Part shown: one piece after another, positions 26,758 to 53,031 of the stretch
Layout: every line of letters begins with the position of its first letter
Position numbering within the stretch: position 1 is the first letter of the stretch
NCBI GenBank assembly: GCA_964643545.1
Contig: CAZXTE010000001.1
Span: 19,101 to 83,100 of the forward strand
Origin: an uncultured Candidatus Saccharibacteria bacterium
GTDB taxonomy: Bacteria; Patescibacteriota; Saccharimonadia; Saccharimonadales; AWTP1-31
DNA length: 64,000 bases
Direction of reading: 5' to 3'
The notes under the pieces: generated by a model
Told to the model about the DNA's origin: nothing
Database searches by the model: none
What the model saw: only the letters and a program-made list of their open reading frames with translations
Program-made: the position numbers and the translations under genes

Positions 26758-26875
26758 TTGTTGCTTTTATTACTGCTTTTTCTTTGATCTGTTCCGTGGC
26801 AATTTTTAAGCACGACAATTTTTCTTTTTAGGACTCTGCTACTACGCTTTCTTTACTAAATGTAGAGGGTACATT

Positions 26876-33251: not shown

Positions 33252-33281
33252 GGGAGGCCCTACGATGGCCTACAATACTAG

Positions 33282-35400: not shown

Positions 35401-37863
35401 TTATTTAATTCTCGCTACCGAGAAGTGATGGCCACGATCTTCCAGGTAGGCGTTACCAGCTTGTGGCGCCTGGGAGCCGAGTGAAGCCTGGCGCATGTTA
35501 TACGTGCCTCCCTGTGTCCCGACGTAGATGAATGTGTGTCCCTGGTCACCCGCTGCATAGATCAGTATGTCACCCGGCAACAGCTTGCTTGTGTCGTTTA
35601 TATCGTCAAAAACGGTGTACTTTTCGGGATGACTTCGGAGATACTCAAGTTGTGTTCCGGTGTCGACTTTCGGGTAACTCGTGTCCACCCCGCTACTGAG
35701 CATAACCGTAGCCACAAACCCACCACAGTCAGTTACGTCGGGTGTCGGATTGAATTGTTTCTTGGTATCGAGGAATTTTTGTGTTGCCGTTGCCCCATGG
35801 CCTTTGTCCGGCCACGCGAGGCTTATTGCGGTAGCCACAACATCACCCGCAACAGCAGCATTCCCCCCGGCATCAGGAGACCCTGTGCAGGTACCTGCAC
35901 TAGACCCACCACCACCCCCAACATAGTCTGCACCAATTGCAACCTTGTCGTAGTCACCCTCAGTGTCGCCAGGCCAAGCGATTTGTGGGGCGCCCGGTTT
36001 CTCATCGAGGCCGCCTAAATAGGCAAAGATAGCTCCCGCCCCCATGCGTCCGCTGTTGTCCAAGCCGTAATTACCGTATCCATAGGCGGCAGAGCCCAGA
36101 TATGCACTCCAGGTATTGAGCCATTCGTTGGCCCCAAAAGTTCCATCCTGAATGGCTGCAATAACCTCGGCACCAGTCTTCTGTGGGTTTCTTCTTGTTG
36201 CATGAAGGATAAGAACCCAGGTCGAGTAGTCGATATCTTGCACATTAGACCCATAACCACGTCTAGCTGGGGCACGTCCAGGGACTTGCTCGGGAGTATC
36301 AAAGAATCCGGGCACGCCCACATCGGCGGAATGCCACTTGTACTGCTTGCCGCCCAACTCAGCAGCAGTCGGAAGCTTCCGGCCATTAATCATAGATTGT
36401 TCTGGGTTCGAACTGCCTTCACGCCAGTGCGTTGCTGCTAGTGCCTGCCACGGCACGCCCCAACGCGCCCCAATAGACTTGTAGACAGGGATCTCCCTCA
36501 CGATATCACTTTTTATAAGTGCATCGAGTTTTGACTCTAACCCCTTGCCTTTAATCATTACATTATCGGGGTAGGTCTTGTAGCTGGCGTCAGCGGGTGT
36601 CCCTGGGTTACCGCCACCCCCGCCAGGAGCTGGCGCCCCGGGTTGGCGGATTGCATTAATACGATCCAAAGACTGCTGGATGCGCTGATTCGTTATTTTT
36701 CCTGCCTTATAGTCGGATTCAAGCCGGTCAAGCACCTTCCCAACCGATGATTCATTCACAAAAACAGCCATGTCTGCGCCTGCCGCGATCGCCATAGACG
36801 TTGCCTCCTCTACGCCGTATTTAGACTTAATGGCTTCCATGGTGCCTATGTCGTCTGTCATTGCGACACCGTTAAAGCCGTATTTATCGCGCAATAGTTT
36901 ATAGGTCTCGGGGCTCAAACTCGTTGGTATGCCACCAGTTGTTAGTCCGGGCACATTAAGGTGGCCCAGCATAACAGCAGACCTCGGGTTCTTTAGTAGT
37001 TTTTCGTAAGGCTTTAAATCCCTACCCTCCAGAGTTGCTAAGTCACTGGTTGTCACAACCTGTTTGTGCGAATCGCCATTGGCATAACCATGACCTGGGA
37101 AGTGCTTAAACACGGGCGTAAGGTTGCCTTGGCGGAGTCCTTCGGCAAACGCGCCAGACTTTTTTTCTACAACCGCAGGATCTTTCGAGAATGCCCTGTC
37201 CAAGGGGCTAATAACGGCAGAGCCACCATCGAGGTCTGCCACAGGCGCAAAATCCATGGTTAGTCCAACGGCTGCAAGCTTGTCCGCTTGGCCCTTCGCA
37301 ATGCTCTGAACTTCTGTGTCTGTTTTCGTACCCATTTCCCGAGCACTGGGCACAACGCCGAGCGGACGAAAGCGCTGTACTTTACCGCCTTCTTCGTCGG
37401 CAGCCACCAACATGGGTACAGGACCGGCTTTGAACTTATCGATCCACGTTTTATCTTTCTGCTCAAATTGTCGTCCCATCAAGAAGACTCCCCCCACATG
37501 GCTATCAATCAAGGCTTGAGCTTCTGACTCATTTGTCACAGAGACCATCAACAGTTGGGCGAGCTTCCCGCGGATGCCCCACTCAGCTGGAATTTCATAG
37601 CTGGCGCCAGTTGTTGGGCCTGTTGTTTCGCACTTCTCTTTGGCGTAGTTTGTCTTGTGGTGTTCCGTGTTTAGGAGGATGTGGTACAGATCGTCCTCGG
37701 GTATTTTTGCAGCCATTCCAAGTGGGATGATTGCTTGGAAATACAGCATGGTGAGAATGAACGACGCGCAAAAGAGGCGGAACAGGTGCTTTTTCTTCAC
37801 TATAGACATAGACATAGGCATGGTGTTATTAGCTCCCAGTATGAGACCAATGCCATGGCTCAT
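35401..37863 (-). CDS. secreted multi-domain peptidoglycan hydrolase: GH3 beta-N-acetylhexosaminidase (NagZ-like) plus C-terminal CHAP/NlpC-P60-like domain
   Basis: The KHFPGHGYANGDSH motif is a GH3 hallmark. A Gly/Pro linker (PGGGGGNPGTP) follows, then a middle domain, then C-terminal Cys (DCGGFVATVM) and His (GHTFIYVG) papain-like motifs. It has an N-terminal signal anchor. The real start may be an internal Met at 37821, 37815 or 37809, which would remove the 35-nt overlap. Confidence 0.7.
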   Translation of the reverse strand: MSHGIGLILGANNTMPMSMSIVKKKHLFRLFCASFILTMLYFQAIIPLGMAAKIPEDDLYHILLNTEHHKTNYAKEKCETTGPTTGASYEIPAEWGIRGKLAQLLMVSVTNESEAQALIDSHVGGVFLMGRQFEQKDKTWIDKFKAGPVPMLVAADEEGGKVQRFRPLGVVPSAREMGTKTDTEVQSIAKGQADKLAAVGLTMDFAPVADLDGGSAVISPLDRAFSKDPAVVEKKSGAFAEGLRQGNLTPVFKHFPGHGYANGDSHKQVVTTSDLATLEGRDLKPYEKLLKNPRSAVMLGHLNVPGLTTGGIPTSLSPETYKLLRDKYGFNGVAMTDDIGTMEAIKSKYGVEEATSMAIAAGADMAVFVNESSVGKVLDRLESDYKAGKITNQRIQQSLDRINAIRQPGAPAPGGGGGNPGTPADASYKTYPDNVMIKGKGLESKLDALIKSDIVREIPVYKSIGARWGVPWQALAATHWREGSSNPEQSMINGRKLPTAAELGGKQYKWHSADVGVPGFFDTPEQVPGRAPARRGYGSNVQDIDYSTWVLILHATRRNPQKTGAEVIAAIQDGTFGANEWLNTWSAYLGSAAYGYGNYGLDNSGRMGAGAIFAYLGGLDEKPGAPQIAWPGDTEGDYDKVAIGADYVGGGGGSSAGTCTGSPDAGGNAAVAGDVVATAISLAWPDKGHGATATQKFLDTKKQFNPTPDVTDCGGFVATVMLSSGVDTSYPKVDTGTQLEYLRSHPEKYTVFDDINDTSKLLPGDILIYAAGDQGHTFIYVGTQGGTYNMRQASLGSQAPQAGNAYLEDRGHHFSVARIK

Positions 37864-40800
37864 TCCAGTACTGCTTTAGATTATACTTTCCGGCGTTATC
37901 TATGAGCCAGTCCCACATCGGCATGCCGGGGGCAACACGAGGGTTGCTGGGGCTAGCTTTCCCACCATTTTTTGTGCCAAACTCCTCAGGGTGACCAACT
38001 CGAGTAAGCGCAAAATCTACGGCATCACCAGACTGATGTCTAGATGTTCCAGGCTTTGCGACATCGGAGTAGACGCCGTTAGGGCACTTATCATCTTTTG
38101 CGCACAGCTCTTGTTGGTGCTTCATGGTGCGAAAACTACTGGAGGCTTTGGGTGAGACGCCATCGCTCTTCATGGCGTTAAACATGTTCACCCAATCATT
38201 TGATTTGTCTGCTGCCACGAGTACGTTACCATCTGCCCCATTTACGTAATATTGACTACGCGGATTACTCTCCTCGCTTGAACTTGGGAAGCCAAGGATC
38301 GCACACAGGGTTATCTTCTTTAGAACGCCACCTTCATACCCATCGGCAAGCCCCACGTTCTTGGTGCCACTTGCACAGGTTCCGTCGCCCGTACCTCCCG
38401 TAGAGGCGGGGGGTGGTCCAAGACTCGCCACAAGAAAGTCGCTCTTTGCCAGGTATCCTGCAGCAGTATGGTGAATTTTATCTGGCGCAAACGGATACTT
38501 AGCTGGATTTTTAGCCACCTCGGCACGCCAGTCAATGGGTGTATATTTCAGGGCAGCCGCCTGGCTCGAAACTGCCGCCGCGACAGCATCGTAATTGGAA
38601 ATTTGGGTTTTTGCATTCATCCAGAATATCTTCGCCGAGGGGTTGTATTCGTGGATTTTGTCGACCATGAGTTTTATTTTGCTCGCGAACTGGGGGCTGT
38701 CTGGTCCTGGGTTTGTGCCCAGCATGACCGCTATTGTCCCGGCACGGCTAACTTCGTTTCTATCGAGGTCGATCTTTTCTAGAGATCGGTCAACGTCTAT
38801 ACCGTCGGTTGCCTGGACCTTGGTAACTTCCCACCCAGCAGTTTGCAGCTTGTTCGTTAATGAGCCTAAGTCTTTCATGCCGTTTGTCAACGAGTCGCCA
38901 ACGACGTAGACTGCATTATTGCCACCCCCACTATTTGAACCTCCGCCCCCGCTGGTGGTTTCAGATTCATAATCTTCCGGGTCGAGCACATCAGTTGTAT
39001 ATCGGCCACCAGCTGCCGCCACAGCCTTCTTATTTAGCAAGCAAGGGTTTTCCTTGGTGTGCACGTCGGTGCCCGTCTCCTTGTCCTCTATAAGCGTACC
39101 TGCAAATTCACCGCGCCCATTCGCCCAGTCTTTATCCATCTTTTCACAGACGGCGTCGGTAAGCGTGTCTGGGTCAACATCAAGTGCTGACGAATTCTTT
39201 GGAAAGCCATATTGGACGACACCAAATGGGTCAGGCTTTGCATCTGCTGCAAAGGTCTTTTTGGTGGCAAGTAAACTGCCAAAACTTTTTGACAGGCTTG
39301 TGAATGGATTTGCGAGAAGACCGGTGACGCCTGTATTGGCGGTTCTAGTCACACTGCTGGGTGTAGCCATCGCCATTTGGCTGACAAGTGATTTTGGACT
39401 CTCTGTGCTGAACATACGAGCAAAGAATGGTTGACGTTGGAATTCCTCGTTGCGCTGATTCTCTTGGTCGGCGCGAATCTCGGCTACCTGGGCGTCGGTG
39501 AGGCGTATGCCCCCCAGGCCATAGTGTGCATCATTATTCCCTGCTACATCGGCACCGCCTGCGAGCATATCGAATGTGCGGGCCCCGCTCATGTCTGCAG
39601 ACACTGGTGACGGGATTAGCCACTTCGCAATTGTTTCGAATATCTTGCCGATTTGTTCCTCAATCATCTTCTTTAGGTCAGCGTATTGAGGAAAGATCTT
39701 GCTAATTGCTGCCTCGACAGCACCTACGCCCAGATCAATGAGCTTATTGATCAAGTTAAGGATTTGTCCGATTGTGGCGTTCCATGCATCTGCCGTCTGC
39801 CCGAGCAGACTAAGTGGGGGTTGATTAAAGATGTCAGATATTTTCTGGATGACCCCATTGGTAAGCAGACTTTCCTCTGGGCAAATAAGCTTACCGGTGT
39901 CTGGCTTATTCTTATCGTCACATGTGTATTTTGGCTCTGACGCAGTGCTGCCCGTTTCTGCTGCGTATGCTTTTTGCGGCGACAGGACATCCAAAAAGGA
40001 GCTTTTTTGTATTGGTTCGCCTAGGATGTCCCCGTAGAGTGGTGCTAATTCAGCGGGTTGATTTTTGTGGTCTTTATCACCGGCGCTGTCACCCACACCA
40101 TTCGTCATGCTACCGAGCAACTCGACGTTACAATGCATGCCTTTGCACTCGTCTGCAGTTGTTCTATACAGCATGTAGGTTGCCACCATTTGCGTGCCAA
40201 TAATTTCGTATTTCCAGCGTTTCAATGCCGGCCCAGCTGACTTAGCTTTCGCGGTAATTCTGGCTGCTAGGTCAATCCAGCCAATAACAGGCAAGCCTTT
40301 CGAGGCGGCTGACCCTGCAGCCTCTCCGGCAATCTTCGCAACAACCTCTTCAACAATAAAAGCAGTTAAGCTCTTGTCTGCGAGTTTAATTGTCTTCTCA
40401 ACAATTTTTTCTACGGTCTCCTCGGTGAATTCTTTGCCAGACTTCTCAAGTGCCTCACGAATTTGTTTCTCTATTTTGTCTCTCCTCACTCCGTCATTGT
40501 CAGCTTCACCCTTCGATGCTTTGTCCGAATCACAGGCAGGATCGATGATACACTCTAATACAAAACCCAGATGTTGAGTGTAGGGTATGATGACCCGGCG
40601 ATTAATGACGAGCCTGAAGGCTCCCTTCTTTTTGTCTTTCCAGTCGTCTATGCGATCTTTTGATTTGCACGCAAAAACACACCTCCGGATGCCGTATTTT
40701 TCTTCCAGAAGTCGCCCCACCTTGAATCGGTACATAACACGCTTCCACAATGTCTCTTCTTTGAAAGACTCACGTACTTTTATGCGAACATCATTTCTGC

Positions 40801-41575
40801 CACCTGCTGCCTTCCACATACCCTGGTTTGGGTCTTTTCGCCAGCCTTCTACGTCAAGGTTACTCACTTTGTCATTGACCTTAATCTTGTAGTCGCTTGC
40901 CCCGCCACTAAAACCATCCCGGGTTATTTCTATGCCGTATTTCTCGGATAGTTTATTCTCGAGGCGTGCATCGCGCCAACCCCTAAACAAGCGGGCAGCC
41001 GGCGAATCGCCTTCTAGATTGGCAATACAATTTTTGTCTATTGTCCCAGACGAACGACTACAGGTTCCCTTGCCTAGGTTTGGGATCACCTTATCTCGGA
41101 GGTACTTGTCTAGTAGCCTTTCTGCTCTCGTTTGCACAGCACTCTCCGAGCTGGCAAAAAAGCGACTCTGCAAATTTTCCATGATGTGGTTAATCTTCAA
41201 GGGCAAAAACGCCATGAATGCGGCCAGAATCAAACCGCCAATGCCACCCCCAATAAGCCCAGCACCAATCAATTTCTTTTTTTTGCCGCCCGTGGCACCT
41301 GCTAAAAATTTCTTAAGGCTTTGAAGGTCTTTTACATCCTCAGTATTGTAGCCGCTCCCAACCCTATCGCCGAGCGCATCTGCTTCTCTTGATGCGGCTC
41401 CGCCAACACCATCCGCTGCCTCTCCCTGAGCCTCTTGCTCTGAGATATTTGGTGTTTCTGTCGAAGCGTCACCACTGGCCTCGTTTGTTAGTTTGGGGTC
41501 CTCATCTCCGCCCCCCACACTTCCTGATGCTCTTCGAGGCGAGTCATCGTCATATATTTTTGATGGTTCACCCAT
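37829..41575 (-). CDS. giant membrane-anchored multi-domain protein: SGNH/GDSL hydrolase plus C-terminal M15 (VanY/LAS-type) peptidase domain
   Basis: 1248 aa with an N-terminal TM (GAGLIGGGIGGLILAAFMAFL). There are a GDSL block VYVVGDSLTNG and a downstream SGNH-like block. The C-terminal SRHQSGDAVD ... EPWHW motifs match Zn D-Ala-D-Ala carboxypeptidase-like (VanY / peptidase M15) signatures. Confidence 0.65.
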   Translation of the reverse strand: MGEPSKIYDDDSPRRASGSVGGGDEDPKLTNEASGDASTETPNISEQEAQGEAADGVGGAASREADALGDRVGSGYNTEDVKDLQSLKKFLAGATGGKKKKLIGAGLIGGGIGGLILAAFMAFLPLKINHIMENLQSRFFASSESAVQTRAERLLDKYLRDKVIPNLGKGTCSRSSGTIDKNCIANLEGDSPAARLFRGWRDARLENKLSEKYGIEITRDGFSGGASDYKIKVNDKVSNLDVEGWRKDPNQGMWKAAGGRNDVRIKVRESFKEETLWKRVMYRFKVGRLLEEKYGIRRCVFACKSKDRIDDWKDKKKGAFRLVINRRVIIPYTQHLGFVLECIIDPACDSDKASKGEADNDGVRRDKIEKQIREALEKSGKEFTEETVEKIVEKTIKLADKSLTAFIVEEVVAKIAGEAAGSAASKGLPVIGWIDLAARITAKAKSAGPALKRWKYEIIGTQMVATYMLYRTTADECKGMHCNVELLGSMTNGVGDSAGDKDHKNQPAELAPLYGDILGEPIQKSSFLDVLSPQKAYAAETGSTASEPKYTCDDKNKPDTGKLICPEESLLTNGVIQKISDIFNQPPLSLLGQTADAWNATIGQILNLINKLIDLGVGAVEAAISKIFPQYADLKKMIEEQIGKIFETIAKWLIPSPVSADMSGARTFDMLAGGADVAGNNDAHYGLGGIRLTDAQVAEIRADQENQRNEEFQRQPFFARMFSTESPKSLVSQMAMATPSSVTRTANTGVTGLLANPFTSLSKSFGSLLATKKTFAADAKPDPFGVVQYGFPKNSSALDVDPDTLTDAVCEKMDKDWANGRGEFAGTLIEDKETGTDVHTKENPCLLNKKAVAAAGGRYTTDVLDPEDYESETTSGGGGSNSGGGNNAVYVVGDSLTNGMKDLGSLTNKLQTAGWEVTKVQATDGIDVDRSLEKIDLDRNEVSRAGTIAVMLGTNPGPDSPQFASKIKLMVDKIHEYNPSAKIFWMNAKTQISNYDAVAAAVSSQAAALKYTPIDWRAEVAKNPAKYPFAPDKIHHTAAGYLAKSDFLVASLGPPPASTGGTGDGTCASGTKNVGLADGYEGGVLKKITLCAILGFPSSSEESNPRSQYYVNGADGNVLVAADKSNDWVNMFNAMKSDGVSPKASSSFRTMKHQQELCAKDDKCPNGVYSDVAKPGTSRHQSGDAVDFALTRVGHPEEFGTKNGGKASPSNPRVAPGMPMWDWLIDNAGKYNLKQYWNEPWHWSHTGS

Positions 41576-41601: not shown

Positions 41602-43515
41602 TTAAACTCCAGGCGTCAATCTATTGTTAAGGTCAATGGTGCCTTGTGGCTGATTGATTTCGCCCTGTCTCATTTGTTGAACCTGCTGCGGATTCGTTGT
41701 GATAAGCCCGGTTTCTGTAGGGCTGGCTGTAATCTGGATATGAACGTGGCTTTGCCCAGCGAAGAACAGGCCCTGGCCAACAGGAAATTGACTGAGGCGC
41801 TTCTTCTCCTCGCTGGTAAGCTTGAATATATCAGCCAATACATCAACGGCAGACGTCGACTGCTTCAGCAGTATCTGCATGCTTGCGTTGGCAACGATCG
41901 CGCGACCCATGCGTGATCCCATAAAGTCCTCCACATCCTGGCTAATGGTGGTAATGCCGAGGTTGTACTTTCGAGCACGTTTTGCAAGCGAAAACAAGAA
42001 GTTAGCAGAGTCTTCGTACTTCATAAGCTGCCAAGCTTCATCGACAATCAGAATGCGACGTTTTACGTCACTCTTCGTTTTGTTCCAGATGTAGTTCAGT
42101 ACAATGTACATAGCAACGGGGCGTAATTCGTCCTCGAGGTCACGTATGTTAAACACAACCAGGGGATTATTGACGTTAGTATTCGATTGCTGACTAAAAA
42201 TGCCCGCAAATGTACCGGTGGTATATTTTCTTAGACGCTGTGCGAGCTGTGGTCCTGTGCCGCCCATATGTAGCAGCGTGTCGTACAGATCGGCAATTGT
42301 TGGCGGAACCCCATTGTGCGTGAGTGGATCGTTGGTTATGCCGGCCTTGGCATATGTTTCGATGAGTGCTGCGTCGAGGTCGGATTCTTCTACGGGGGAT
42401 AAAGCAGGAACAGCGGCTACACCGCCACTTGCTGCCATTTGTGCTTGTGCGCCACCCATCATCAGTCGGAAGAGCCCGTGCAAAGTAATAATATTACTAC
42501 GCAAGGCGTTGTCGGCTTCTTCGGCATCTACAACCTTCGGAAGGTCAAAGGGGTTAATGCGTGTTGCTGAGCTCAAACTTAGTCGTACATATGCACCACC
42601 GACTGCATCACACATTCGCTGGTATTCGTTTTCTGGGTCAATAATAAAGATTTCGGTGCCGAACATAAGACTACGCAACGCTTCTAGCTTAACGGTAAAC
42701 GACTTACCAGCACCCGACTTGGCAAAGACAACTGAGTTGCCATTTTCTAGGCTAAACCGATCAAATATAACAAGACCAGAGTTGTGCATGTTGATGCCGT
42801 ACAATATGCCATTCTCTTGGCTCAGGTCGGCCGAAGTAAACGGGAAGCTCGTGCTAATCGCGCCCGTGTTCATATTGCGACGAATCTGAAGCTGGTCCAT
42901 AAATTGCGGTATGCAACTATTAAAGCCCTGCTCTTGCTGTGAGGTAGCTGCTTTGGAGTAGGTTAGCTGTTGGCCCAGCATAGACTCGATCTTGTGGGTT
43001 ACAAACTCCAGTTCGTCCATGTCGCCTGCGTAGACAGTAAAATATAATCCAAAACGGAAGAAACGTTCCTCGCCAACCTGTAACTTATCGCGCATTTCCT
43101 CAGCATCTGTAATGGCGGCCTGCTTGCCTGGGTCTCGCACGCGTCCCTTCTCTGCGTCAATCTGTAGACCGGCCTCTAACTGCGTTACTTTTTTGCGCAA
43201 GTTCTCCAAAACCACTTGGCTTTCCACGGGGTATATATACATAGAAAGATCCATAACCTCGTCGATGTTTACCAGGCTACTTGCCCAGCCTGTAAAAACC
43301 TGGCGGGGGTATCCGTAGACATAAAATGTTCTGGCTATCCTGGTCCCAATATGGAACAGACTATTCTCGAACACAAGTGAACTGGGGGCGATAAAGTCAC
43401 GAAGTGCAGTGATGCCCTTTTGGAACGCTGCGCTTACCTCTTGCTCTTCTCGTGCTCGTTGCGCTTGTGCGATTGCAACCGGGTCAACGGGTTGGTTCTT
43501 TCTGCCAAAAGCCAT
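41602..43515 (-). CDS. virB4: type IV secretion system ATPase, VirB4/TraC/CagE family (C-terminal ATPase module)
   Basis: Walker A FAKSGAGKSF and Walker B ILIVDEAWQL (DEAW is characteristic of VirB4) are present, with an ISQDVEDF motif C region. 637 aa is short for VirB4, which suggests the N-terminal domain is encoded separately. Confidence 0.75.
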   Translation of the reverse strand: MAFGRKNQPVDPVAIAQAQRAREEQEVSAAFQKGITALRDFIAPSSLVFENSLFHIGTRIARTFYVYGYPRQVFTGWASSLVNIDEVMDLSMYIYPVESQVVLENLRKKVTQLEAGLQIDAEKGRVRDPGKQAAITDAEEMRDKLQVGEERFFRFGLYFTVYAGDMDELEFVTHKIESMLGQQLTYSKAATSQQEQGFNSCIPQFMDQLQIRRNMNTGAISTSFPFTSADLSQENGILYGINMHNSGLVIFDRFSLENGNSVVFAKSGAGKSFTVKLEALRSLMFGTEIFIIDPENEYQRMCDAVGGAYVRLSLSSATRINPFDLPKVVDAEEADNALRSNIITLHGLFRLMMGGAQAQMAASGGVAAVPALSPVEESDLDAALIETYAKAGITNDPLTHNGVPPTIADLYDTLLHMGGTGPQLAQRLRKYTTGTFAGIFSQQSNTNVNNPLVVFNIRDLEDELRPVAMYIVLNYIWNKTKSDVKRRILIVDEAWQLMKYEDSANFLFSLAKRARKYNLGITTISQDVEDFMGSRMGRAIVANASMQILLKQSTSAVDVLADIFKLTSEEKKRLSQFPVGQGLFFAGQSHVHIQITASPTETGLITTNPQQVQQMRQGEINQPQGTIDLNNRLTPGV

Positions 43516-44387
43516 TACAGTAGCTCCCTGTCTAAGTTTGGTTGTGGAGCCTGTCCTTGCCCTCTTGTGACAACAGGTGTTGAAAGATCACCGAAGTTAC
43601 GAAGTTGCTGCCTTGTTGCAGTATCTGGGTTGTAGGCATCGTAGTAGAGCTCGATAAGTTCCTGGGTATCGAGTGGTAACCCTTGGATGCCGCACTGCAT
43701 CAATCCAGAGAGTACAGCTTGTACGCGGTTTCTCAGCTCGTCTTTTGCCTTGGCGAGATCAGTCTCATTGATAACCACTTGCTTCTCAGGCTTCTTGCTG
43801 AACAGTGCCCCAATGCCACCAACAAGTTTCTTGCTTTCATCCAGTGTTTTCTGCAGGTCTGCTACGGGGAAATAGGGTATGACCACGTAAAAACGTTTAT
43901 CCATAATGTTGGTTTGTTGGCTCAACTGATCCATGAAATTTATGTAATCGTCCATGAGTAGCGCCAACAGCATGTTGTCGTGCTCGCTACGAATTTTGAC
44001 AAGCTTATCCAAGTAAGGTCCAAGGTCTACCTTCTCGGAACGGATCATAATTTGTATAGGGAAATAGAGAGAATTTAGAAAACCCTGGTAGCTAAACTCA
44101 ACAGCCTCTCGTTCTTGCGGGCTCATTAGGTCAAAGTTAATAGATTTTGTCATGATGACGGAACGGAAAGAGCCATCGTTCATGATCACAATACCATCTC
44201 GGATTTCCGCTATTTGCAGGGCATTTTGTGTGCTGTTTGGGTTTGATGGTGGTGCAAGAGGTTGTGGTTTGGCCCCAGCGGTACGAGGTGCATTAAAGCT
44301 AGCAGGTGGCGGTCCAGCGGGGGTTGGGTATGCCATCCCGGGCTGGTTTTGTACGGGGTTCATCTGAGGATTTGATGCCGGATTCAT
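43515..44387 (-). CDS. protein translationally coupled to virB4, possible detached VirB4 N-terminal domain
   Basis: 290 aa. Its stop TAA overlaps the virB4 ATG by 1 nt. The N-terminus is Pro/Asn-rich and low-complexity. The rest (IAEIRDGIVIMNDGSFRSVIMTK...) is a folded domain reminiscent of the VirB4/TraC N-terminal region. Confidence 0.5.
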   Translation of the reverse strand: MNPASNPQMNPVQNQPGMAYPTPAGPPPASFNAPRTAGAKPQPLAPPSNPNSTQNALQIAEIRDGIVIMNDGSFRSVIMTKSINFDLMSPQEREAVEFSYQGFLNSLYFPIQIMIRSEKVDLGPYLDKLVKIRSEHDNMLLALLMDDYINFMDQLSQQTNIMDKRFYVVIPYFPVADLQKTLDESKKLVGGIGALFSKKPEKQVVINETDLAKAKDELRNRVQAVLSGLMQCGIQGLPLDTQELIELYYDAYNPDTATRQQLRNFGDLSTPVVTRGQGQAPQPNLDRELL

Positions 44388-44427: not shown

Positions 44428-45471
44428 TTAACGCAGCGATATTATTACTTCACCATCGTCAGTCTTTGATTGACTGGGGTGGTTCTTCTCTGCCTCTCGT
44501 GCCAAACTATCAATCGGGCGATTATTCTCGATTGCTAGGTTCAGTATATCAGGCGCAGGTGCTGCTGTCACCCCTGGTGATTTTGGTTGTGCTTGCGGGG
44601 GCTGACTCGAAAGCGGCTGGAGCTTTCTGTGGTTACGAAACGACTCATCTGGGTGGCTTTTTTGCTCGTGTATCTTGTTTAGTAGCGCCTGCTCATTTGC
44701 GTCTGGTATTGCTGGCTTGGCAAAAGTCGGAGCAGGTGTTGACCCTCCCTGTGATTGCACGAACCAGCCTCCTGGGGGTGCGATATTGGTGCTCGGTGCT
44801 TGTTGCTCCCGAGCAACTTCACGCATGTGAGAGACTGCCTCTTGTTGGTGCACTTCCTTCGACTGGGCAATTTGGGCATCGAGCCGAGCGGCCGTTTGAT
44901 TATCAAAAATATCATCCTCTGCTCGAACATCTATGGTCGAGACCTGCTTTGGCAATTCCTCGACCGCTACAAGCCTGTCCGAGCTTGGCGCCATAGCTAA
45001 CGAACCGTAAGAGGGCTGTGCAAATAAGTTCACGTCCACGTTCTTAATAACCCAACCACGGCTGTCTATGGTTGTTGCCAGCGCCTTAAGGCGGCTTTTG
45101 ACTTCGTTCTGGCTAAGGTTATCAGAGAAGTTCTGTTCAATATGTTTTGGAACAGTTATCTTGACCAGTTCCTTCATGCCCGACTGGTCCCAAATGCGTT
45201 TACGTGGCTTAAAGTAAAAACGGAGCTTAGCGAGGAGCCATACCTCAGTGGGCTGATCTCGACCCCACGGGAACGCCAAAAACCCAAAGACAATCTCTAT
45301 AGGCAACAAAATAACCGCCACAAACCATACATTGTGTGTAAGGCCCAAGAAACTTATGTAAAGACTGGTTACAACAATCGCCCCAAAGATAAATTGTTTC
45401 AGCGTTAAGGGGCCAAGGAACTTATCCTCTGCCTCAATATCCTGGAGAACTTTATACGTAGCCACTAGCAT
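44428..45471 (-). CDS. membrane protein with N-terminal TM hairpin, candidate VirB3-like T4SS subunit with extended Pro/Gln-rich tail
   Basis: Two adjacent N-terminal TM helices (FIFGAIVVTSLYISFLGL / VWFVAVILLPIEIVFGFLAF) sit immediately upstream of virB4. This position and topology are typical of VirB3/PrgI/TcpE. Confidence 0.45.
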   Translation of the reverse strand: MLVATYKVLQDIEAEDKFLGPLTLKQFIFGAIVVTSLYISFLGLTHNVWFVAVILLPIEIVFGFLAFPWGRDQPTEVWLLAKLRFYFKPRKRIWDQSGMKELVKITVPKHIEQNFSDNLSQNEVKSRLKALATTIDSRGWVIKNVDVNLFAQPSYGSLAMAPSSDRLVAVEELPKQVSTIDVRAEDDIFDNQTAARLDAQIAQSKEVHQQEAVSHMREVAREQQAPSTNIAPPGGWFVQSQGGSTPAPTFAKPAIPDANEQALLNKIHEQKSHPDESFRNHRKLQPLSSQPPQAQPKSPGVTAAPAPDILNLAIENNRPIDSLAREAEKNHPSQSKTDDGEVIISLR

Positions 45472-46547: not shown

Positions 46548-49500
46548 CTATTGGCGCTTGGTGGGGTCGTTGCCAACATCTATTGGGATATCCTCTCCAG
46601 GAAGTGGGGTACCGGACCGTCCCGCTGGACCACCCGGTACAGTTGAGCGTGTTGGAGTACCGGCTATGGGGTCTGCTCTGCCTGTGGTGCCTACCTCGCG
46701 GCTCCACTCGACGGGGTCAGTTGCGGCGTGCCCTGTAGCTGGGTCGATCCTAGAACTAGTTTCAAATAATGCGTAAAAGTTCTCCATTTCTTCTTTGGTG
46801 CGTCCGCTAGCACCACCACCAACTTGGGTGATCATTCTTCCAGTTGGGGTACCGCTTGCCGTCATTTCCGGTACTGTCTGGCCGATGCTGCGTGCAATTC
46901 GAGCACCACGTTGGATAACTTCATTTGCGGCTGCCTGTTCATCGGCTGTTGCAGCTGGGTTAGCGAGTGTGGTACGAGCACGAACGACTTCTTCTGACAT
47001 TGTAGTCCAGGTGTCCGGATGCTGTTGTGTCATCTGGTATGTGCCTTGGCGTTCATCGATCTCTTGCATAAGGGCTGTGGCATTCATGGTTAGTCCATTC
47101 TCGCCGTATTGGTAATGCTTCCACTCGCGGTCGGTATTCTGGTTGGCGAAGGCCGCACCCGTCCATATGCCACCCATTTGGCCTGTAGTAGCATTTTCGG
47201 CAGCACCACCACGTGTTGCTAGGCGACCAACGTTCTGGTACAGGTAATCATGTTGTTCTTGGGTGGTGGCTTTGCGCATTTCGTAACTAAGAGCGTACTG
47301 TGCAGCATCTTGGTCCCCACGCCAGCGATTGTGTGCCGCATCCACGGCACTTTCGTCGACCCATTTCCCACCAAGTGTTTTATATTGACGTGTATTATTG
47401 TGGATTCGAACATGACCATTCCCGTCCGGGTCGTAGAGGTTGCCGGCTATAGCATCGGCCTCCGCCTTGTTTACAGTCAGTGCTCGTACCTCAGTATCAT
47501 CCCCGGTAGAGGTCAGCTGCTCCATTCGTTTTTGTGTTTCGCCACGCATTGCTGTAATACCCTCCTCGAGGTTATAGCCACCAACACGCCCCTGCAAGAA
47601 TCGCGCGCTTCTGCCAAACCGACCGCCCCTGCTGGCGTAGGTGCCAAGGGCACGGTATTGACGATCTCGTGCTGTTAGCATGCGGCGCTGCACATCTTGT
47701 TTGGCCTGTTCTTTGCGACTTTTGGTGAGCCCTCCAACCTTTGCGGTGCCCCCAGCAACGGCTGCATAGAGTTTGCCCATGGCTCCCCCGGCAAACTTGA
47801 AAGCAAAAGGAATCAGGAATAATGGGATAATTTGCAGCGAGAATGCGATGAGACCCGCAAGTCCCGCGGAAACAGGGTTGGGACTTCCGGAAGTCCCTAC
47901 GGCGTCATTTGCTACGAGTATTGTTGCGCTCAATATGCTGGCAGTCGAGAATATAACAACAACAATTGGGAACACTAGTAATGTCTCGAATAATAAGTTC
48001 CACCACTTTTTAAAATATTGTTCGGTATTTGGGAGGCAGTACAAAGCAAATGCAACGGGGCTGACCATAATGAGGGCTAATATAATGCCGCGCCGAATAA
48101 CGAGCGTTGCAAAGACCGCAAGGATGGCTAACATTGCCGGAACGACAATGCCGATAAGAATAAAAACTGCCGCCTTCCCCAGGAACCCTGCCGTTAAAAA
48201 CCCACCCAGGAACCCTGCAATACCTGCAGCCCCAAGAAACAATGCGAGAACAGTAGTTAGTACTGCGCCAAGTTGCGCCCCTGGGCTGGGAGCTGCATGA
48301 AGCAAATCGGCCACTGGGGCCATCATGAGCTGGGCAATTCCCTTGCCAAGAACGTTGGTGATGTCCACGAGCAAAGCCACAATGTAGACAGATAAGTTTA
48401 TGAGTATGGCCGCTATTAATATGCGTGGCATCACTTTCTTGGCTGTATACGCATCGATAATGCCTCCACCGATAGTTTGCCCAAAAACAATGACCAGCAT
48501 GGCTATGATGAGGAATATATTGCCATAAACGCGAAATGCCGACCACGCCTTGAAGCTCGGGTCTGATGGGTCGGTAGAAACAGGGCTGGTATATAAAAGA
48601 GGGGATACAAGATTCTTAAAAAGCCAGTCAGTTGTTTCGGCAAACATATTAAAGACAGGGCAAAGTATCCAGTTTAGGCTAAAACCAGATGCTTCGCAGG
48701 TGGCGTTTGTGTCGTCCGATGTGCCGTCCGTGTTCCCACCCCCAGACGGGTTACTGCCCCCACTATTATCTCCCTGATTTCCTTTAGAATCTTCAATTTG
48801 TTTCTGGTAATCGCCATCAAGATCCTTCATGAGCTTAGATAGGTCTGGGGTAAAGCCGTCATCTTCCAAAATATGGAAACATTTTTTATTCTTGTCGCCG
48901 CCACACTGCTGAGAGTTACTGTTCGTATCTAGATTATAGACGAGACTACTCCCGACCATCTGCACTGCGTAATTATCTGCCGTGATTGCGGCACTGGACC
49001 ATGTTACGTCATCTTGGTCTACTTCAAAGTCTTGATTGATGGTGAGTGCAATTGTTATCTCTTTGCCATCCTTGTCCTTTATGACGGATGCTGCACCACT
49101 ATTGTTGTTGCCAGGCAGCTTAATGAGACGAAAGCGAAAATTACCCGACTTTTTTAGAAAGGCGAGCTTGTCTGCCTGGGCACTAGCTTGTATGTAGTCT
49201 TTATCGCCAGCTTTAATTTTAAAGTGGACGCTTACTTTTCTTTGATTAAGTGGGCTGATATCGATACGTGACGTACATGTCTTGTCTCGATACGATTTGT
49301 CGGCAAACTTTTGGTGTTCCTCCCAGACCCCTGAGCTCTTAAGCTTTGAGTAGAGCTTTTCGGCTTGATCTGCATAAAACCTCTTGGTGCTCGCGTCGCC
49401 GCCATTACGAATGTCCCACAAGTGGTCCTGATCTTTGGGGTTGCCTTTCTGGTAGGTAAATGTGCCAGGAAAGCACAGGTCCATGGTAAGCCGTGCATCT

Positions 49501-49844
49501 CCATTAACAAATGTGGCAATACGGGGCGCAGCTACTGTAGAAAACTCAGCCGAGGCAGTCTTATAGGTATAGTCACCATTATCCGGGATAGATTCTGCTT
49601 TGTTATCGGCGCGAATGTAAGGCAAGTCTCGATCCGTGCGGGTTGTAAAGACATCCTTTCCCGGAACACGATTATAATTTGAGTTCACATCGTCATCATA
49701 AGGACTGGTAGCGTATGCTATTTGTGGCGTGAAAATAATAACGCCAGCAAGAAGCTGCAGGATGATAAATGATATAAAAGCAAATGGAATAAGCTTGCGG
49801 TTAGATCTCACAACTGAAGTATAGATTAACGGAATTAAATACAC
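46548..49844 (-). CDS. large polytopic membrane protein, VirB6/TrbL-like channel subunit with N-terminal extracellular and C-terminal cytoplasmic domains
   Basis: 1098 aa. Signal anchor, then a ~380-aa external domain, then about 8-9 TM helices (residues ~400-690), then a ~400-aa hydrophilic tail. It is the first gene of the operon containing virB4. Confidence 0.55.
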   Translation of the reverse strand: MYLIPLIYTSVVRSNRKLIPFAFISFIILQLLAGVIIFTPQIAYATSPYDDDVNSNYNRVPGKDVFTTRTDRDLPYIRADNKAESIPDNGDYTYKTASAEFSTVAAPRIATFVNGDARLTMDLCFPGTFTYQKGNPKDQDHLWDIRNGGDASTKRFYADQAEKLYSKLKSSGVWEEHQKFADKSYRDKTCTSRIDISPLNQRKVSVHFKIKAGDKDYIQASAQADKLAFLKKSGNFRFRLIKLPGNNNSGAASVIKDKDGKEITIALTINQDFEVDQDDVTWSSAAITADNYAVQMVGSSLVYNLDTNSNSQQCGGDKNKKCFHILEDDGFTPDLSKLMKDLDGDYQKQIEDSKGNQGDNSGGSNPSGGGNTDGTSDDTNATCEASGFSLNWILCPVFNMFAETTDWLFKNLVSPLLYTSPVSTDPSDPSFKAWSAFRVYGNIFLIIAMLVIVFGQTIGGGIIDAYTAKKVMPRILIAAILINLSVYIVALLVDITNVLGKGIAQLMMAPVADLLHAAPSPGAQLGAVLTTVLALFLGAAGIAGFLGGFLTAGFLGKAAVFILIGIVVPAMLAILAVFATLVIRRGIILALIMVSPVAFALYCLPNTEQYFKKWWNLLFETLLVFPIVVVIFSTASILSATILVANDAVGTSGSPNPVSAGLAGLIAFSLQIIPLFLIPFAFKFAGGAMGKLYAAVAGGTAKVGGLTKSRKEQAKQDVQRRMLTARDRQYRALGTYASRGGRFGRSARFLQGRVGGYNLEEGITAMRGETQKRMEQLTSTGDDTEVRALTVNKAEADAIAGNLYDPDGNGHVRIHNNTRQYKTLGGKWVDESAVDAAHNRWRGDQDAAQYALSYEMRKATTQEQHDYLYQNVGRLATRGGAAENATTGQMGGIWTGAAFANQNTDREWKHYQYGENGLTMNATALMQEIDERQGTYQMTQQHPDTWTTMSEEVVRARTTLANPAATADEQAAANEVIQRGARIARSIGQTVPEMTASGTPTGRMITQVGGGASGRTKEEMENFYALFETSSRIDPATGHAATDPVEWSREVGTTGRADPIAGTPTRSTVPGGPAGRSGTPLPGEDIPIDVGNDPTKRQ

Positions 49845-49931: not shown

Positions 49932-50450
49932 ATGAACGAAAACAATAATCAAACACCAGCAGAAACCGTAGACTACAGTTTCATAACGGATCAACCCACG
50001 GCATCTCCAAAAAAGAAACCTAATAAAATGATCGCCATATTTCTCGGGTTGACGTTGCTCGTTATTTTGGCGGCGGGCTTACTGTTGTTAGTACAGTCCA
50101 AAAAAAGCACAACCAAAAGTAACATCGACGCAGAACAGGTCGTCCGACAACTTTTTGTAGATATGGGGAACGGGGATAATATCGCCGCCCTAAACGCATT
50201 TACGGGGCCAAATAAGCCGGATGCTGCGTACCTTGAGGGCTACTTAATAGCTCCGCTGAAGAATGATTACTTGGTAGATTCATGCACATTTACCTCTTCA
50301 GAAACAAAAGTAGCTAGCTATTACCAGGTCAAGGCATCTTGCCCACAAAAGCAAGCAAGTAACATCAGAATTCGTGTAGACTTTACAGTTATGAGACAAG
50401 AGCTATCATCGAAAATTGTTGCATACTCTCTTGGCGGGGTAGATACGTGA
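49932..50450 (+). CDS. bitopic membrane protein, divergent from the T4SS operon
   Basis: 172 aa with a TM at residues ~33-54. It overlaps the next gene by 4 nt. Confidence 0.5.
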   Translation: MNENNNQTPAETVDYSFITDQPTASPKKKPNKMIAIFLGLTLLVILAAGLLLLVQSKKSTTKSNIDAEQVVRQLFVDMGNGDNIAALNAFTGPNKPDAAYLEGYLIAPLKNDYLVDSCTFTSSETKVASYYQVKASCPQKQASNIRIRVDFTVMRQELSSKIVAYSLGGVDT

Positions 50451-51433
50451 AATTGGTAAAGCGGGTTCACACCGCCGGATTAGTTATCCTATCTGTCGCT
50501 GGTCTACTTAGTGCAACATTATTCGTACATCCAAAATCGGTCCAAGCAGCCGCGCCAATATGCTATGAGCTACTCGGCAGCTCTGGTAATGATGTCCGAG
50601 TGGCTGACTGTAATAATCCCACAGTAGTTACTTTAAGAGACCAAAAGTACCCTGCTGACAAAAAATTTCTTGACGATCACTGTTACCTATATGGTGGATT
50701 TGGATTTTTCATAAAACGAGGTTTAACAGAAGTGCCGCCTGCGAGCGATGCAAATAAGAAATACACCTGTGAGTGGGCAAGAAAAGCGGCGGCTGCAGGT
50801 CAGGCAGCCGCTCCAAAATGTTACTTATTCTCTCGTGCGACGTTGGACGATTACTTTTCATTTAAATTTGCCGCTACAGATATCAAGGAAACTGCGTGCA
50901 CGCAAGAATTAAAGAATTACTACAGGTTTGTTCACAATCCTAAAGAAATAGAAAGCGGGTGGTGCTACCTATTCAGCCAAGATCATAACAACATCCAGAC
51001 ATCATGTGCAGACCTTCTTTCCAATATTGCAACTGCAGATAGTAGCGGAGGCGGGGGCGGCGGCACCTCCAGTTGCGCAAGCGATCCAACGCTTTCTTTC
51101 TGTGTGGACCTGCCGGTTAAGACCAATGATACGTGCGGCGAAGCTGGTAGCGGTACGGAAGTCCAGATATCGATCAATGTGGGATGTGTGGGCAAAGGTA
51201 ATGGCATTCTTGATCTGACCTTTGCGCTCATTCGATTTCTCTCTTATGGTGTGGGCATTGCCATGGTGGCCTCTTTAGTTGTTGCTGGCATACAGTACAG
51301 CTCCTCTAGAGGTGATCCACAGGCTACCAGCAAGGCAATAGGTCGTGCGCAGAGCACTGTTGGGGCGTTACTTCTGTTCTTGTTTATATATGCTATATTG
51401 AACTGGATAATACCCGCAGGACTCTTGAAATGA
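50447..51433 (+). CDS. Cys-rich secreted protein with C-terminal VirB2/TrbC-pilin-like helix-loop-helix
   Basis: 328 aa with a signal peptide and at least 12 Cys, followed by a Gly-rich linker SSGGGGGGTSSC. The C-terminus has two hydrophobic helices flanking SSSRGDPQATSK. This is the same module as in the five downstream paralogs. Confidence 0.55.
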   Translation: MKLVKRVHTAGLVILSVAGLLSATLFVHPKSVQAAAPICYELLGSSGNDVRVADCNNPTVVTLRDQKYPADKKFLDDHCYLYGGFGFFIKRGLTEVPPASDANKKYTCEWARKAAAAGQAAAPKCYLFSRATLDDYFSFKFAATDIKETACTQELKNYYRFVHNPKEIESGWCYLFSQDHNNIQTSCADLLSNIATADSSGGGGGGTSSCASDPTLSFCVDLPVKTNDTCGEAGSGTEVQISINVGCVGKGNGILDLTFALIRFLSYGVGIAMVASLVVAGIQYSSSRGDPQATSKAIGRAQSTVGALLLFLFIYAILNWIIPAGLLK

Positions 51434-51819
51434 CACTCCCCCTAACCTATTTTGCAGCAGCTTGTGAAGCTGGGAAAGACACCGCCGGGCAGGTGTTAAA
51501 CTTCTTTGCATTTCCTACGTGGTACAAATATCTTGAAGGGCAGACTATCACAAGTAACGGTGCCGCAGAATGTGCCCCTAAAATCACTAAGATTGGTGAT
51601 GCCTGGTTGGTGTTGGCGGCTGTTATAGAAATAATGCTACGAGTCGGTGCACTCATTGCGATAGCATTTGTTATCTATGGGGGCATATCGTTTATTACCA
51701 GCGAAGGACAGCCAGATAAAGCATCAAAAGCCAGGAGCACAGTAATAAATGCAGTTATTGGGCTGGCACTTTCGATTTCGGCATCGGCGGTAATCTCTTT
51801 CATAGCAAGGAGCTTTTAA
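51430..51819 (+). CDS. VirB2/TrbC-pilin-like small membrane protein (paralog 2 of 6)
   Basis: 129 aa. The helix-loop-helix has the loop ITSEGQPDKASKARS. It overlaps the upstream gene by 4 nt. Confidence 0.55.
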   Translation: MTLPLTYFAAACEAGKDTAGQVLNFFAFPTWYKYLEGQTITSNGAAECAPKITKIGDAWLVLAAVIEIMLRVGALIAIAFVIYGGISFITSEGQPDKASKARSTVINAVIGLALSISASAVISFIARSF

Positions 51820-52140
51820 GTGACATTCAACGTATTTGCACAAACACAGCCCCCACCTACTTCACAGGTTGGTGTTTGTACTACAGATTTGTGCAACACA
51901 AATCTGCCCGCAGTGAGTGCAGGAAGCACGCAAGTGACTACGGTTTTGCAGATCTTGTTTGGAGTGGTAGCAGTGCTGGCGCTTATTTATGTCATTTTGG
52001 CAGGTTTGAAGCTCATCACTTCCAGCGGTGATCCTCAGTCAGTAGCAAAAGGACGACAACAGATACTCTTTGCAGTTATTGGCCTGACAGTTGCACTCAG
52101 CGCCGAACTAATCATTTCATTTGTAATCAACAGGCTATAA
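51820..52140 (+). CDS. VirB2/TrbC-pilin-like small membrane protein (paralog 3 of 6)
   Basis: 106 aa with a CTTDLC Cys pair and the loop ITSSGDPQSVAKGRQQ between two hydrophobic helices. Confidence 0.55.
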   Translation: MTFNVFAQTQPPPTSQVGVCTTDLCNTNLPAVSAGSTQVTTVLQILFGVVAVLALIYVILAGLKLITSSGDPQSVAKGRQQILFAVIGLTVALSAELIISFVINRL

Positions 52141-52142
52141 TC

Positions 52143-52550: not shown

Positions 52551-52558
52551 AGGAAAAA

Positions 52559-52969: not shown

Positions 52970-53031
52970 CTGTTGTAACTTCCCTCAAAGTTGTGATATA
53001 AACATAAGTAGCAATATAGAAAGGTAAAAGA

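Follow-up and report, generated by a model that had tools for sequence, protein, structure and literature searches.

The window analyzed here, a 64,000-nucleotide stretch of Saccharibacteria DNA, raises the question of how a type IV secretion system (T4SS) obtains its VirB4 motor when the ATPase gene is short and is preceded by a second, overlapping ORF. The 637-aa ATPase ORF is hereafter called ORF B, and the 290-aa ORF upstream of it ORF A. The original prediction left three options for this pair, namely a genuinely split gene, a programmed frameshift or readthrough site, and a sequencing frameshift. We found that the VirB4 of the T4SS in the window is encoded as two adjacent, translationally coupled genes. 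It is probable (roughly 80%) that they specify a two-chain motor, in which ORF A supplies a TrsD-like VirB4 N-terminus and ORF B the remainder, with the protomer rebuilt non-covalently from the products of the coupled genes. The layout of a TrsD homolog with a short VirB4 is phylum-wide and was already published in 2025 (PMC12102498); the observation is correct but ordinary.

Genomic context of the VirB4 genes

The window contains a chromosomal type IV secretion locus of Saccharibacteria, close to dnaN and recF, and this locus belongs to the set of Patescibacteria T4SSs already described (PMC12102498; PMC10633639). ORF B sits inside a T4SS gene cluster, with a PrgI/VirB3-like gene upstream, an envelope hydrolase gene downstream, and a pilin array nearby:

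37829..41575, minus strand: downstream gene, 1248-aa envelope hydrolase (Pfam VanY, a peptidase, 3.9e-15; Lipase_GDSL_2, 1.6e-7)
41602..43515, minus strand: ORF B, 637-aa VirB4 ATPase without the N-terminal ~180 residues (NCBIfam CD1110 family; Pfam P-loop_TraG, AAA_10, and DUF87)
43515..44387, minus strand: ORF A, 290-aa TrsD-like protein, stand-alone N-terminal module of VirB4, with ATG start and TAA stop
44428..45471, minus strand: upstream gene, 347-aa PrgI family (VirB3-like) membrane protein (Pfam PrgI, 3.4e-11)
46548..49844, minus strand: 1098-aa polytopic membrane protein, part of the same run of genes (ORF with many hydrophobic segments)
50447..53460, plus strand: six VirB2-like pilin paralogs, a divergent array in the same T4SS locus (common C-terminal hydrophobic hairpin)

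The PrgI family protein likely anchors the N-terminal module of VirB4 in the membrane and acts as its partner; VirB3 anchors the N-terminal domain of VirB4 (PMC12857230). The envelope hydrolase, which combines GDSL and VanY domains, is likely a functional analog of VirB1, and genes for peptidase and lysozyme homologs have been reported directly downstream of virB4 in Southlakia ML1 (PMC12102498). The 1098-aa membrane protein gave no match in a Pfam scan and is, from its gene position alone, a candidate VirB6-like channel subunit. The six pilin-like ORFs had in common the C-terminal motif S/T-x-G-D/E-P/S-x-K, and pilin arrays are described from the Saccharibacteria T4SS locus (PMC12857230; PMC10633639).

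Structural features of ORF B

The shortness of the ATPase, as claimed in the original prediction, was borne out by profile alignment. ORF B matched NF045971 (CD1110 family) with 346.8 bits (cut-off, 325 bits; E = 2.4e-103) over profile positions 182–734 of 752; the N-terminal ~180 positions were absent, and no complete N-terminal domain is present on the same polypeptide. Its scores were under the cut-off for TIGR00929 (121 versus 643) and for other class-specific models. The protein retains the second half of the N-terminal domain (residues ~1–229) and the full ATPase domain, in which the following elements were located:

41698..42828, minus strand: residues 230–606, RecA-like ATPase C-terminal domain (PDB 4AG5, chain 4AG5_A, VirB4 C-terminal domain; 7.8e-47)
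42700-42723, minus strand: Walker A, AKSGAGKS, residues 265–272
42037-42054, minus strand: Walker B, ILIVDE, residues 488–493

TrwK was also matched by this C-terminal domain.

Structural features of ORF A

ORF A was predicted to comprise a folded core between two disordered segments:

44217..44387, minus strand: residues 1–57, disordered low-complexity N-terminal extension of variable length (composition; pLDDT <50)
43638..44216, minus strand: residues 58–250, folded alpha/beta core (AF2 pLDDT ~70–84 over 59–175 and 204–250; TrwK structure matches)
43518..43637, minus strand: residues 251–290, disordered C-terminal tail (pLDDT <50)

This agreed with the Pro/Asn low-complexity N-terminus and folded domain that had been read from the sequence: the first ~57 residues contained 15 P, 9 A, 8 N, and 5 Q. 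Homologs of ORF A were between 260 and 357 aa long, with the length variation mostly in the N-terminal extension. The AF2 model was of moderate confidence, with a mean pLDDT of 58.7 (core, 70–84).

The suggested correspondence of this domain to the VirB4 N-terminus was upheld by sequence profiles, predicted fold, and natural fusions. When both ORFs were aligned to VirB4 profiles, ORF A proved similar to the N-terminal region, matching positions 4–118 of the 752-position CD1110 profile, on which ORF B resumes at 182. In the ORF A family (n = 40 tested), the TrsD/TraD and CD1110 models were matched by all 40 members, VirB4_plasma by 38, and VirB4_CagE by 32, and the best E-value against the TrsD model (NF041427) was 8.8e-7. 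ORF A itself scored 25.4 bits against NF041427 (E = 1e-5; profile positions 21–142 of 201), for which the cut-off is 200 bits, and hhalign gave a weak match between the family and the one TrsD sequence from pSK41 (E = 0.012; probability, 3.5%); therefore, ORF A is a remote TrsD relative, for which these scores do not establish strict membership.

In a Foldseek search with the ORF A model, the best 14 PDB matches were all TrwK chains, followed by a steep fall in probability. Two structure-comparison methods singled out VirB4, and the modeled fold appeared to match that of solved full-length VirB4. Sequence identity between the ORF A region and TrwK was ~13%, and sequence searches of ORF A against PDB chains, using either the single sequence or a 40-sequence profile, returned only noise; judged from the model, the relationship of ORF A to TrwK is detectable by fold only. 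Because the fold searches give no matched TrwK residues, the placement of ORF A at the N-terminus of VirB4 rests on the profile coordinates, on the fusions described below, and on one fold match to a partial chain of TrwK with 457 residues. The core of ORF A (~190 residues) is equivalent to the first ~180–200 residues of full-length VirB4.

That ORF A might be unrelated to VirB4 and its likeness spurious would fit the marginal single-sequence E-values (1e-5 to 5e-4) and the PDB sequence search without a match. We regard this as very improbable, since three independent lines agree, namely the colinear profile matches in 40 of 40 family members, the two structure-comparison methods, and the natural fusions. 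A Pfam scan of ORF A and three homologs gave no match even at E ≤10. The precomputed annotation PF26593.2 was carried by 120 of 120 homologs among the matches listed, and also by the fused proteins; no publication on PF26593 turned up in a literature search.

Fused homologs in other Patescibacteria

Approximately 70 protein clusters from other Patescibacteria contained A and B fused in the same order into a single protein of 860–910 aa. In one such protein (P0243; 898 aa), a Pro-rich linker connects an A-like part (37% identity) with a B-like part (50% identity); the core of ORF A aligned to residues 13–228 of P0243, and the fused ORF was continuous in the complete genome CP066695.1. The fused VirB4 of Berkelbacteria-like Patescibacteria contains both modules in the order of ORFs A and B of the window, but an ~80-residue Pro-rich low-complexity linker occupies the place of the stop/start junction, and the disordered segment is internal, whereas that of ORF A in the window is N-terminal. 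With the fused-family profile searched against the PDB, only the ATPase part aligned to TrwK, and the match of the N-terminal domain was insignificant though colinear. The AF2 model of a fused homolog had pLDDT <50 at residues 208–388 and 445–529, and it is uninformative on the docking of A and B because it is poor where the two parts join.

Conservation of the two-gene layout in Saccharibacteria

We compared 79 analyzable related Saccharibacteria loci with the window (80 sequences). ORFs A and B were separate in all 79 loci, with TAA, TAG, or TGA as stop codons, differing relative frames, and A–B spacings ranging from −14 to +289 nt, and the termini of both proteins were conserved as termini. 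Because two ORFs were present in 79 of 79 loci with differing stops, frames, and spacings, the split is genuine and reflects neither a sequencing error nor a programmed frameshift; the genuinely split gene was the correct choice among the three original options. The orthologs retained the two-gene arrangement with an upstream protein related to VirB4, not an unrelated one.

An indel in sequencing or assembly that broke one gene into two has a negligible probability. ORF B is short and the source genome is of metagenome type, being 98% identical to a metagenome-assembled genome of Saccharibacteria, and otherwise nothing favors this account, which was already refuted by the comparative data, the same two ORFs recurring across 79 assemblies that are independent and represent different species. 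Furthermore, stand-alone homologs of ORF A (~260–360 aa) numbered >7,500, and 149 of the 150 best cluster representatives were stand-alone.

The junction between ORF A and ORF B

Two elements were identified at the boundary of the two genes:

43513..43517, minus strand: TAATG junction, the stop of ORF A (43517..43515) and the start of ORF B (43515..43513) having one base in common (sequence)
43524..43529, minus strand: Shine–Dalgarno (SD)-like AGGGAG for ORF B, within the coding sequence of ORF A, 8 nt upstream of the ATG (sequence; position conserved across loci)

The junction reads ...GACAGGGAGCTACTGTAATGGCT..., i.e., TAATG, and base 43515 is common to the stop of ORF A and the ATG of ORF B, which confirmed the coupling by a 1-nt overlap that had been claimed for this pair. 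The ribosome-binding site of ORF B is contained in the codons for the conserved C-terminal (R/K)-E of ORF A; in most of the 80 loci, ORF A ended in L-D/Q-R/K-E-L/M-x-stop, and AGGGAG or AAGGAG lay at a constant distance from the start of ORF B. Since the identical 1-nt stop/start overlap was found in 52 of the 80 sequences, the TAATG junction is not a product of chance.

An anti-SD/SD hairpin at overlap-type TAATG junctions was considered and rejected: no significant RNA structure was detected at the window junction, where folding was no better than that of shuffled sequences (z = 0.43), and the Ala codon that the anti-SD would require varies synonymously among loci.

A programmed −1/+2 frameshift or stop-codon bypass at TAATG would yield a single full-length VirB4. 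The frames of the two ORFs do overlap, that of ORF B in the window running without a stop for ~80 nt ahead of its ATG, and the combined size of A and B would be canonical. However, no conserved slippery motif was present, the nucleotides preceding the stop vary freely, and the frame of ORF B has a stop 2–11 nt upstream of its ATG in several loci (e.g., L036 and L002). Moreover, the genes are 19–289 nt apart, in any relative frame, in 21 loci, and ORF B is equipped with a separate ribosome-binding site and starts with a conserved Met-Ala. This mechanism is thus hardly credible, and the frameshift or readthrough option is excluded by the varied stops, frames, and spacings and by the in-frame stops directly upstream of some ATPase starts.

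Translational coupling and assembly of a two-chain motor

Of the 21 loci in which a gap separates the genes, 19 had a short, non-conserved ORF (relay ORF) that bridged the distance from the stop of ORF A to the start of ORF B or to a few nucleotides short of it. The relay frame contained no stop inside the gap in 17 of these 19 loci and a single stop, at the start of ORF B, in the remaining two, versus 0–8 stops in the two non-relay frames. Small anti-SD/SD hairpins were common in gap-type loci. The 1-nt overlaps and the relay ORFs together indicate that the translational coupling of A and B is under selection.

In the two-chain motor that we favor, a ribosome terminating on ORF A would reinitiate on ORF B, and this reinitiation would provide about equal amounts of the A and B chains, made side by side. 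The two chains may then associate non-covalently into a complete VirB4 protomer, as their complementarity, the natural fusions, and the conserved coupling suggest. If R388 TrwK is taken as the model, the N-terminal-domain contacts with the membrane, with the PrgI protein encoded upstream, and with a neighboring VirB4 protomer would be made by the A module, and B would hydrolyze ATP.

ORF A could instead be an independent accessory protein which, like TrsD, descends from a VirB4 N-terminal domain but has taken on a separate function, for instance as an adaptor that contacts PrgI/VirB3 or the pilins, or in regulation, and forms no protomer with B. The long disordered Pro/Asn-rich head of ORF A, absent from canonical VirB4, would suit such a role, as would the TrsD homologs of Gracilibacteria, reported to lie mostly away from virB4 (PMC12102498). 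We nevertheless consider an accessory role unlikely, given that the segment missing from ORF B is exactly what ORF A resembles, that the same two parts are fused in the same order in ~70 protein clusters, and that coupling is retained even across insertions, as a fixed-ratio partnership predicts.

A more elaborate extension of the two-chain motor is offered tentatively, at somewhat less than even odds. It combines obligate coupling of A and B translation in Patescibacteria, relay ORFs that are selected although their sequence is irrelevant, SD-hiding hairpins, and repeated fusion or fission; on these terms, the pair would be a natural system in which to study how a split motor protein assembles during translation. 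As part of this reading, insertions of hairpins or repeats would have separated A and B, and the relay ORF would move ribosomes from the stop of A to the start of B. In many gap loci, the relay ORF crosses a small hairpin that would sequester the SD of ORF B. The two parts are fused in Berkelbacteria-like lineages and split in Saccharibacteria and pGO1-type plasmids.

The Saccharibacteria T4SS is reportedly indispensable for life as an epibiont. As the 290-aa protein is mostly annotated as "hypothetical" and the ATPase appears truncated, annotators should be aware that the motor is probably a two-chain VirB4, and attempts to reconstitute it structurally or biochemically should include co-expression of A and B. 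The finding confirms and refines the published adjacency of TrsD and VirB4. Its additions are modest, comprising the fused relatives, the match to the pSK41 TrsD/TrsE break point, and the coupling via relay ORFs, which were not found in the consulted parts of PMC12102498 and PMC10633639. These comparative extras suggest that the A and B chains must be made together.

Comparison with known systems

Within Patescibacteria, 2,272 TrsD homologs have been reported, 1,664 of them adjoining virB4 (Quinonero-Coronel et al. 2025, PMC12102498), and a T4SS with a TrsD homolog adjoining virB4 was also described by Wang et al. 2023 (PMC10633639). Southlakia epibionticum ML1 (SEML1_0006-0019), of the same phylum as the window, is described with the same locus architecture (PMC12102498; PMC10633639): both have PrgI/VirB3-like, TrsD-like, and VirB4 genes, downstream envelope hydrolases, a VirB2-like pilin array, and dnaN nearby. 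The TrsD homolog is reported to be essential in this strain (PMC12102498). The resemblance of TrsD to the VirB4 N-terminus is cited here only from PMC12102498, because TrsD does not appear in the main text of Guglielmini et al. 2014 (PMC4027160); the pIP501 TraF paper (PMC13037476) contains nothing on TraD.

Outside Patescibacteria, TrsD plus TrsE (TraD plus TraE) characterizes the staphylococcal conjugative plasmids pGO1 and pSK41 (MPF-FATA, pGO1 subclass). In pSK41, trsD (227 aa; 25886-26569) is followed by a 672-aa VirB4 (26584-28602), as ORF A is by the short ORF B, and trsD is located downstream of a small VirB3-like gene, comparable to the PrgI/VirB3-like gene upstream of ORF A. Residues 28–604 of ORF B aligned end to end with residues 20–626 of pSK41 TrsE (E = 1e-35); because this alignment runs from residues ~20–28 to the end, the break point in the window is that of pSK41 TrsD/TrsE. 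The systems differ in that 14 nt separate the pSK41 genes, whereas those of the window overlap by 1 nt, and in that ORF A has the ~57-residue disordered Pro/Asn-rich head, unlike TrsD of pGO1/pSK41. In addition, pSK41 is a conjugative plasmid, whereas the window system is chromosomal, near replication genes, and of a kind generally described in the literature without a relaxase.

Full-length VirB4 proteins, such as R388 TrwK (823 aa), the CD1110 family (~750 aa), and F-plasmid TraC, are single chains, whereas the window encodes two polypeptides. ORFs A and B jointly span the N-terminal and ATPase domains colinearly with full-length VirB4, the predicted fold of ORF A resembling TrwK and the C-terminal domain of ORF B resembling 4AG5.

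Two adjacent ORFs encode the parts of VirB4

The original prediction described an apparent split VirB4 with translational coupling, for which the following elements were located in the window:

43515..44387, minus strand: ORF A, 290 aa; stop codon TAA at 43517..43515
41602..43515, minus strand: ORF B, 637 aa; start codon ATG at 43515..43513
43529..43524, minus strand: AGGGAG, Shine-Dalgarno-like hexamer, 8 nt 5' of the ORF B ATG

Judged from sequence, this reading is right: A and B are separate genes, A is homologous to the VirB4 N-terminus, natural fusions of the two exist, their break point is also that of pSK41, and the coupling is conserved. The pair had been described accurately. The junction reads GACAGGGAGCTACTGTAATGGCT, so that the A stop and the B start overlap by one base (TAATG), and the first ~57 residues of ORF A are of low complexity (high in Pro, Ala, Asn, and Gln) and predicted to be disordered. 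No significant RNA structure was detected at this overlap junction, and synonymous conservation of a would-be anti-SD was looked for there and not found.

By its profile matches, ORF B is a VirB4-type ATPase. It matched P-loop_TraG, AAA_10, and DUF87 in Pfam and belonged to the NCBIfam VirB4 family CD1110 (346.8 bits; cut-off, 325 bits). The CD1110 alignment was limited to profile positions 182-734 of 752, residues 230-606 matched the solved VirB4 C-terminal domain (4AG5; 7.8e-47), and both nucleotide-binding motifs were present, Walker A at residues 265-272 (AKSGAGKS) and Walker B at residues 488-493 (ILIVDE). These data indicated that ORF B lacks the first ~180 residues; it retains the latter half of the N-terminal domain, followed by the ATPase domain.

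The NCBIfam matches of ORF A were weak but colinear. Residues 59-170 aligned with positions 21-142 of 201 in the TrsD/TraD family (E 1e-5), and further matches of ORF A were to the mycoplasma ICE VirB4 model, in its N-terminal region (E 3.7e-5), to positions 19-135 of TIGR00929 VirB4_CagE, and to positions 4-118 of CD1110 (E 4.5e-4), a profile that ORF B resumes at position 182. Among 40 aligned homologues, TrsD and CD1110 each matched 40/40, VirB4_plasma 38/40, and VirB4_CagE 32/40, demonstrating that the VirB4/TrsD signal belongs to the whole A family rather than to a single sequence. In an AF2 model made from this alignment, the alpha/beta core was of moderate confidence (pLDDT 70-84 at residues 59-175 and 204-250). 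A Foldseek comparison of the model with the whole PDB returned TrwK (the VirB4 of R388)/VirB4 chains as the top 14 matches (E 1e-4 to 8.5e-3; probability ~1.0); they included a 457-residue partial chain, and the probability was <0.1 below them. The local copy of Pfam gave no match for ORF A. PF26593.2 was a precomputed annotation on every ORF A homologue among the matches listed; this local copy, apparently without the PF26593 model, matched neither ORF A nor three homologues, even at E<=10.

Natural fusions join the two modules

HMMER, run exhaustively against 1.84 billion cluster representatives, yielded 2,318 relatives of ORF A. Among the best 150 of these, 149 were stand-alone proteins (~125-480 aa); the exception was P0243, with 898 aa. 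Its residues 13-228 were 37% identical to ORF A residues 52-273, and its residues 312-892 were 50% identical to ORF B residues 19-615, with a Pro-rich linker (residues 229-311) in between. With P0243 as the query, about 70 clusters of fused proteins (860-910 aa) were found, labeled Berkelbacteria, Patescibacteria, and, in one case, Saccharimonadales. The fused frame was continuous (~890 aa) in the complete Candidatus Berkelbacteria genome CP066695.1 (L081 3068-5737), where tblastn placed residues 14-898 in one frame. Sister lineages thus carry both modules, with their order unchanged, in a single chain. The deposited CP066695.1 gene encodes only 582 aa from an internal start at 4001, leaving ~950 nt upstream unannotated; this start is probably mis-called.

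The split is conserved among related loci

A 98%-identical protein is present in public databases, and the window showed 98% protein identity to a Candidatus Saccharibacteria metagenome-assembled genome. We compared 80 related genome loci, of which 79 were analysable, the remaining contig stopping before ORF B. A and B were separate ORFs in all 79. With the window as the eightieth sequence, 52/80 junctions had a 1-nt overlap (TAATG, TAGTG, or TGATG), 7/80 a spacing of -14 to +3 nt, and 21/80 a gap of 19-289 nt. At the C-terminal end of A, the conserved ...(R/K)-E-(L/M)-x codons contain the B ribosome-binding site at a constant distance to the start.

A sequencing frameshift and a programmed frameshift or readthrough had been offered as alternatives to a genuine split. 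The stop codon, the relative frame, and the nucleotides preceding the A stop varied among loci, and several loci had a stop in the frame of B merely 2-11 nt 5' of its ATG. Together with the two ORFs kept in 79/79 loci, this variation excludes a sequencing artefact and rules out a conserved recoding signal, leaving the genuine split gene.

Bridging ORFs in gap-type relatives

Of the 21 gap-type loci, 19 had their gap spanned by a bridging ORF of 10-97 codons without conserved peptide sequence, starting on the A stop (ATGA, GTGA, or TAATG) and ending on the B start codon or a few nucleotides away. Examples from the related loci are:

L032, 6916-7020
L042, 6862-7025
L049, 1583-1685
L055, 6892-7184
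L056, 1181-1293
L074, 4625-4734
L080, 3801-3916

The bridging frame was stop-free inside the gap in 17/19 loci and had a single stop, at the start of B, in 2/19; the other two frames of these gaps contained 0-8 stops. Per-gap shuffling gave P(open) of 0.002-0.31 for gaps of at least 79 nt. Hairpins (z down to -6.2) and short tandem repeats made up the inserted DNA, and a CCTCC-N3-GGAGG mini-hairpin often contained the B ribosome-binding site. The bridging ORFs look like a translational-coupling relay, and, judged from these relatives rather than from the window, A/B coupling seems to be under selection. In the simplest reading, translation of B would need ribosomes coming from A, which would fit fixed-ratio, side-by-side synthesis of the two halves of one protein. 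Of all the findings, this pattern alone may merit separate follow-up.

Gene neighbourhood

ORFs A and B lie within a minus-strand gene string, listed 5' to 3' with the adjoining plus-strand genes:

46548-49844, minus strand: 1098-aa polytopic membrane protein
45524-46495, minus strand: 323-aa Arg/Pro/Ala-rich protein, TTG start
44428-45471, minus strand: PrgI/VirB3-like protein, directly before A
37829-41575, minus strand: GDSL + VanY envelope hydrolase, 1248 aa, directly after B
35401-37863, minus strand: GH3 glycosidase
32160-34355, plus strand: dnaN and recF
50447-53460, plus strand: VirB2-like pilin array, six members, divergent from the string

Neither the 1098-aa nor the 323-aa protein had a Pfam or NCBIfam match. 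The former combines many transmembrane segments with a large N-terminal part that is extracytoplasmic and a long soluble part at its C-terminus; from its position, it could be a VirB6-like channel subunit. The pilin array comprises the C-terminal part of a 328-aa ORF and ORFs of 129, 106, 135, 136, and 142 aa, each with a signal-like N-terminus and a common hydrophobic-hairpin C-terminus. The dnaN and recF genes adjoin the T4SS string ~7 kb from virB4, in agreement with a remark in PMC12102498 that Patescibacteria T4SS loci are often close to the replication origin.

Comparison with known VirB4 systems

In pSK41, trsD (227 aa) lies 14 nt 5' of a 672-aa VirB4, with which ORF B aligned from residue 28 (pSK41 residue 20) to the end, so that the window and pSK41 have a common break point. 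ORF A scored 25 bits against the TrsD family (cut-off, 200), hence is not a member by the strict NCBIfam criterion, and matched pSK41 TrsD weakly in direct hhalign; "TrsD-like" is the best term for this remote relative. NF042935 (SCO6880 family, 477 positions) weakly matched A residues 211-258 (profile 244-292; E 0.027) and B residues 91-203 (profile 364-474; E 0.014), colinearly over the junction. These matches hint that the actinobacterial family may represent the complete N-terminal domain of VirB4 as a stand-alone protein, which would place the break point elsewhere in another phylum.

In R388, VirB4 N-terminal domains join the protomers within each dimer, sit in the membrane, and touch VirB3 and VirB8 (PMC12857230). 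By analogy, A would make particular contacts of this kind. A and B would rebuild the VirB4 protomer non-covalently. The six pilin paralogues match the VirB2-like array reported in the Saccharibacteria T4SS (PMC12857230 and PMC10633639), and the locus is the Saccharibacteria T4SS locus reported by Wang et al. 2023 (PMC10633639) and by Quinonero-Coronel et al. 2025 (PMC12102498). The two-gene VirB4 arrangement is phylum-wide and already published.
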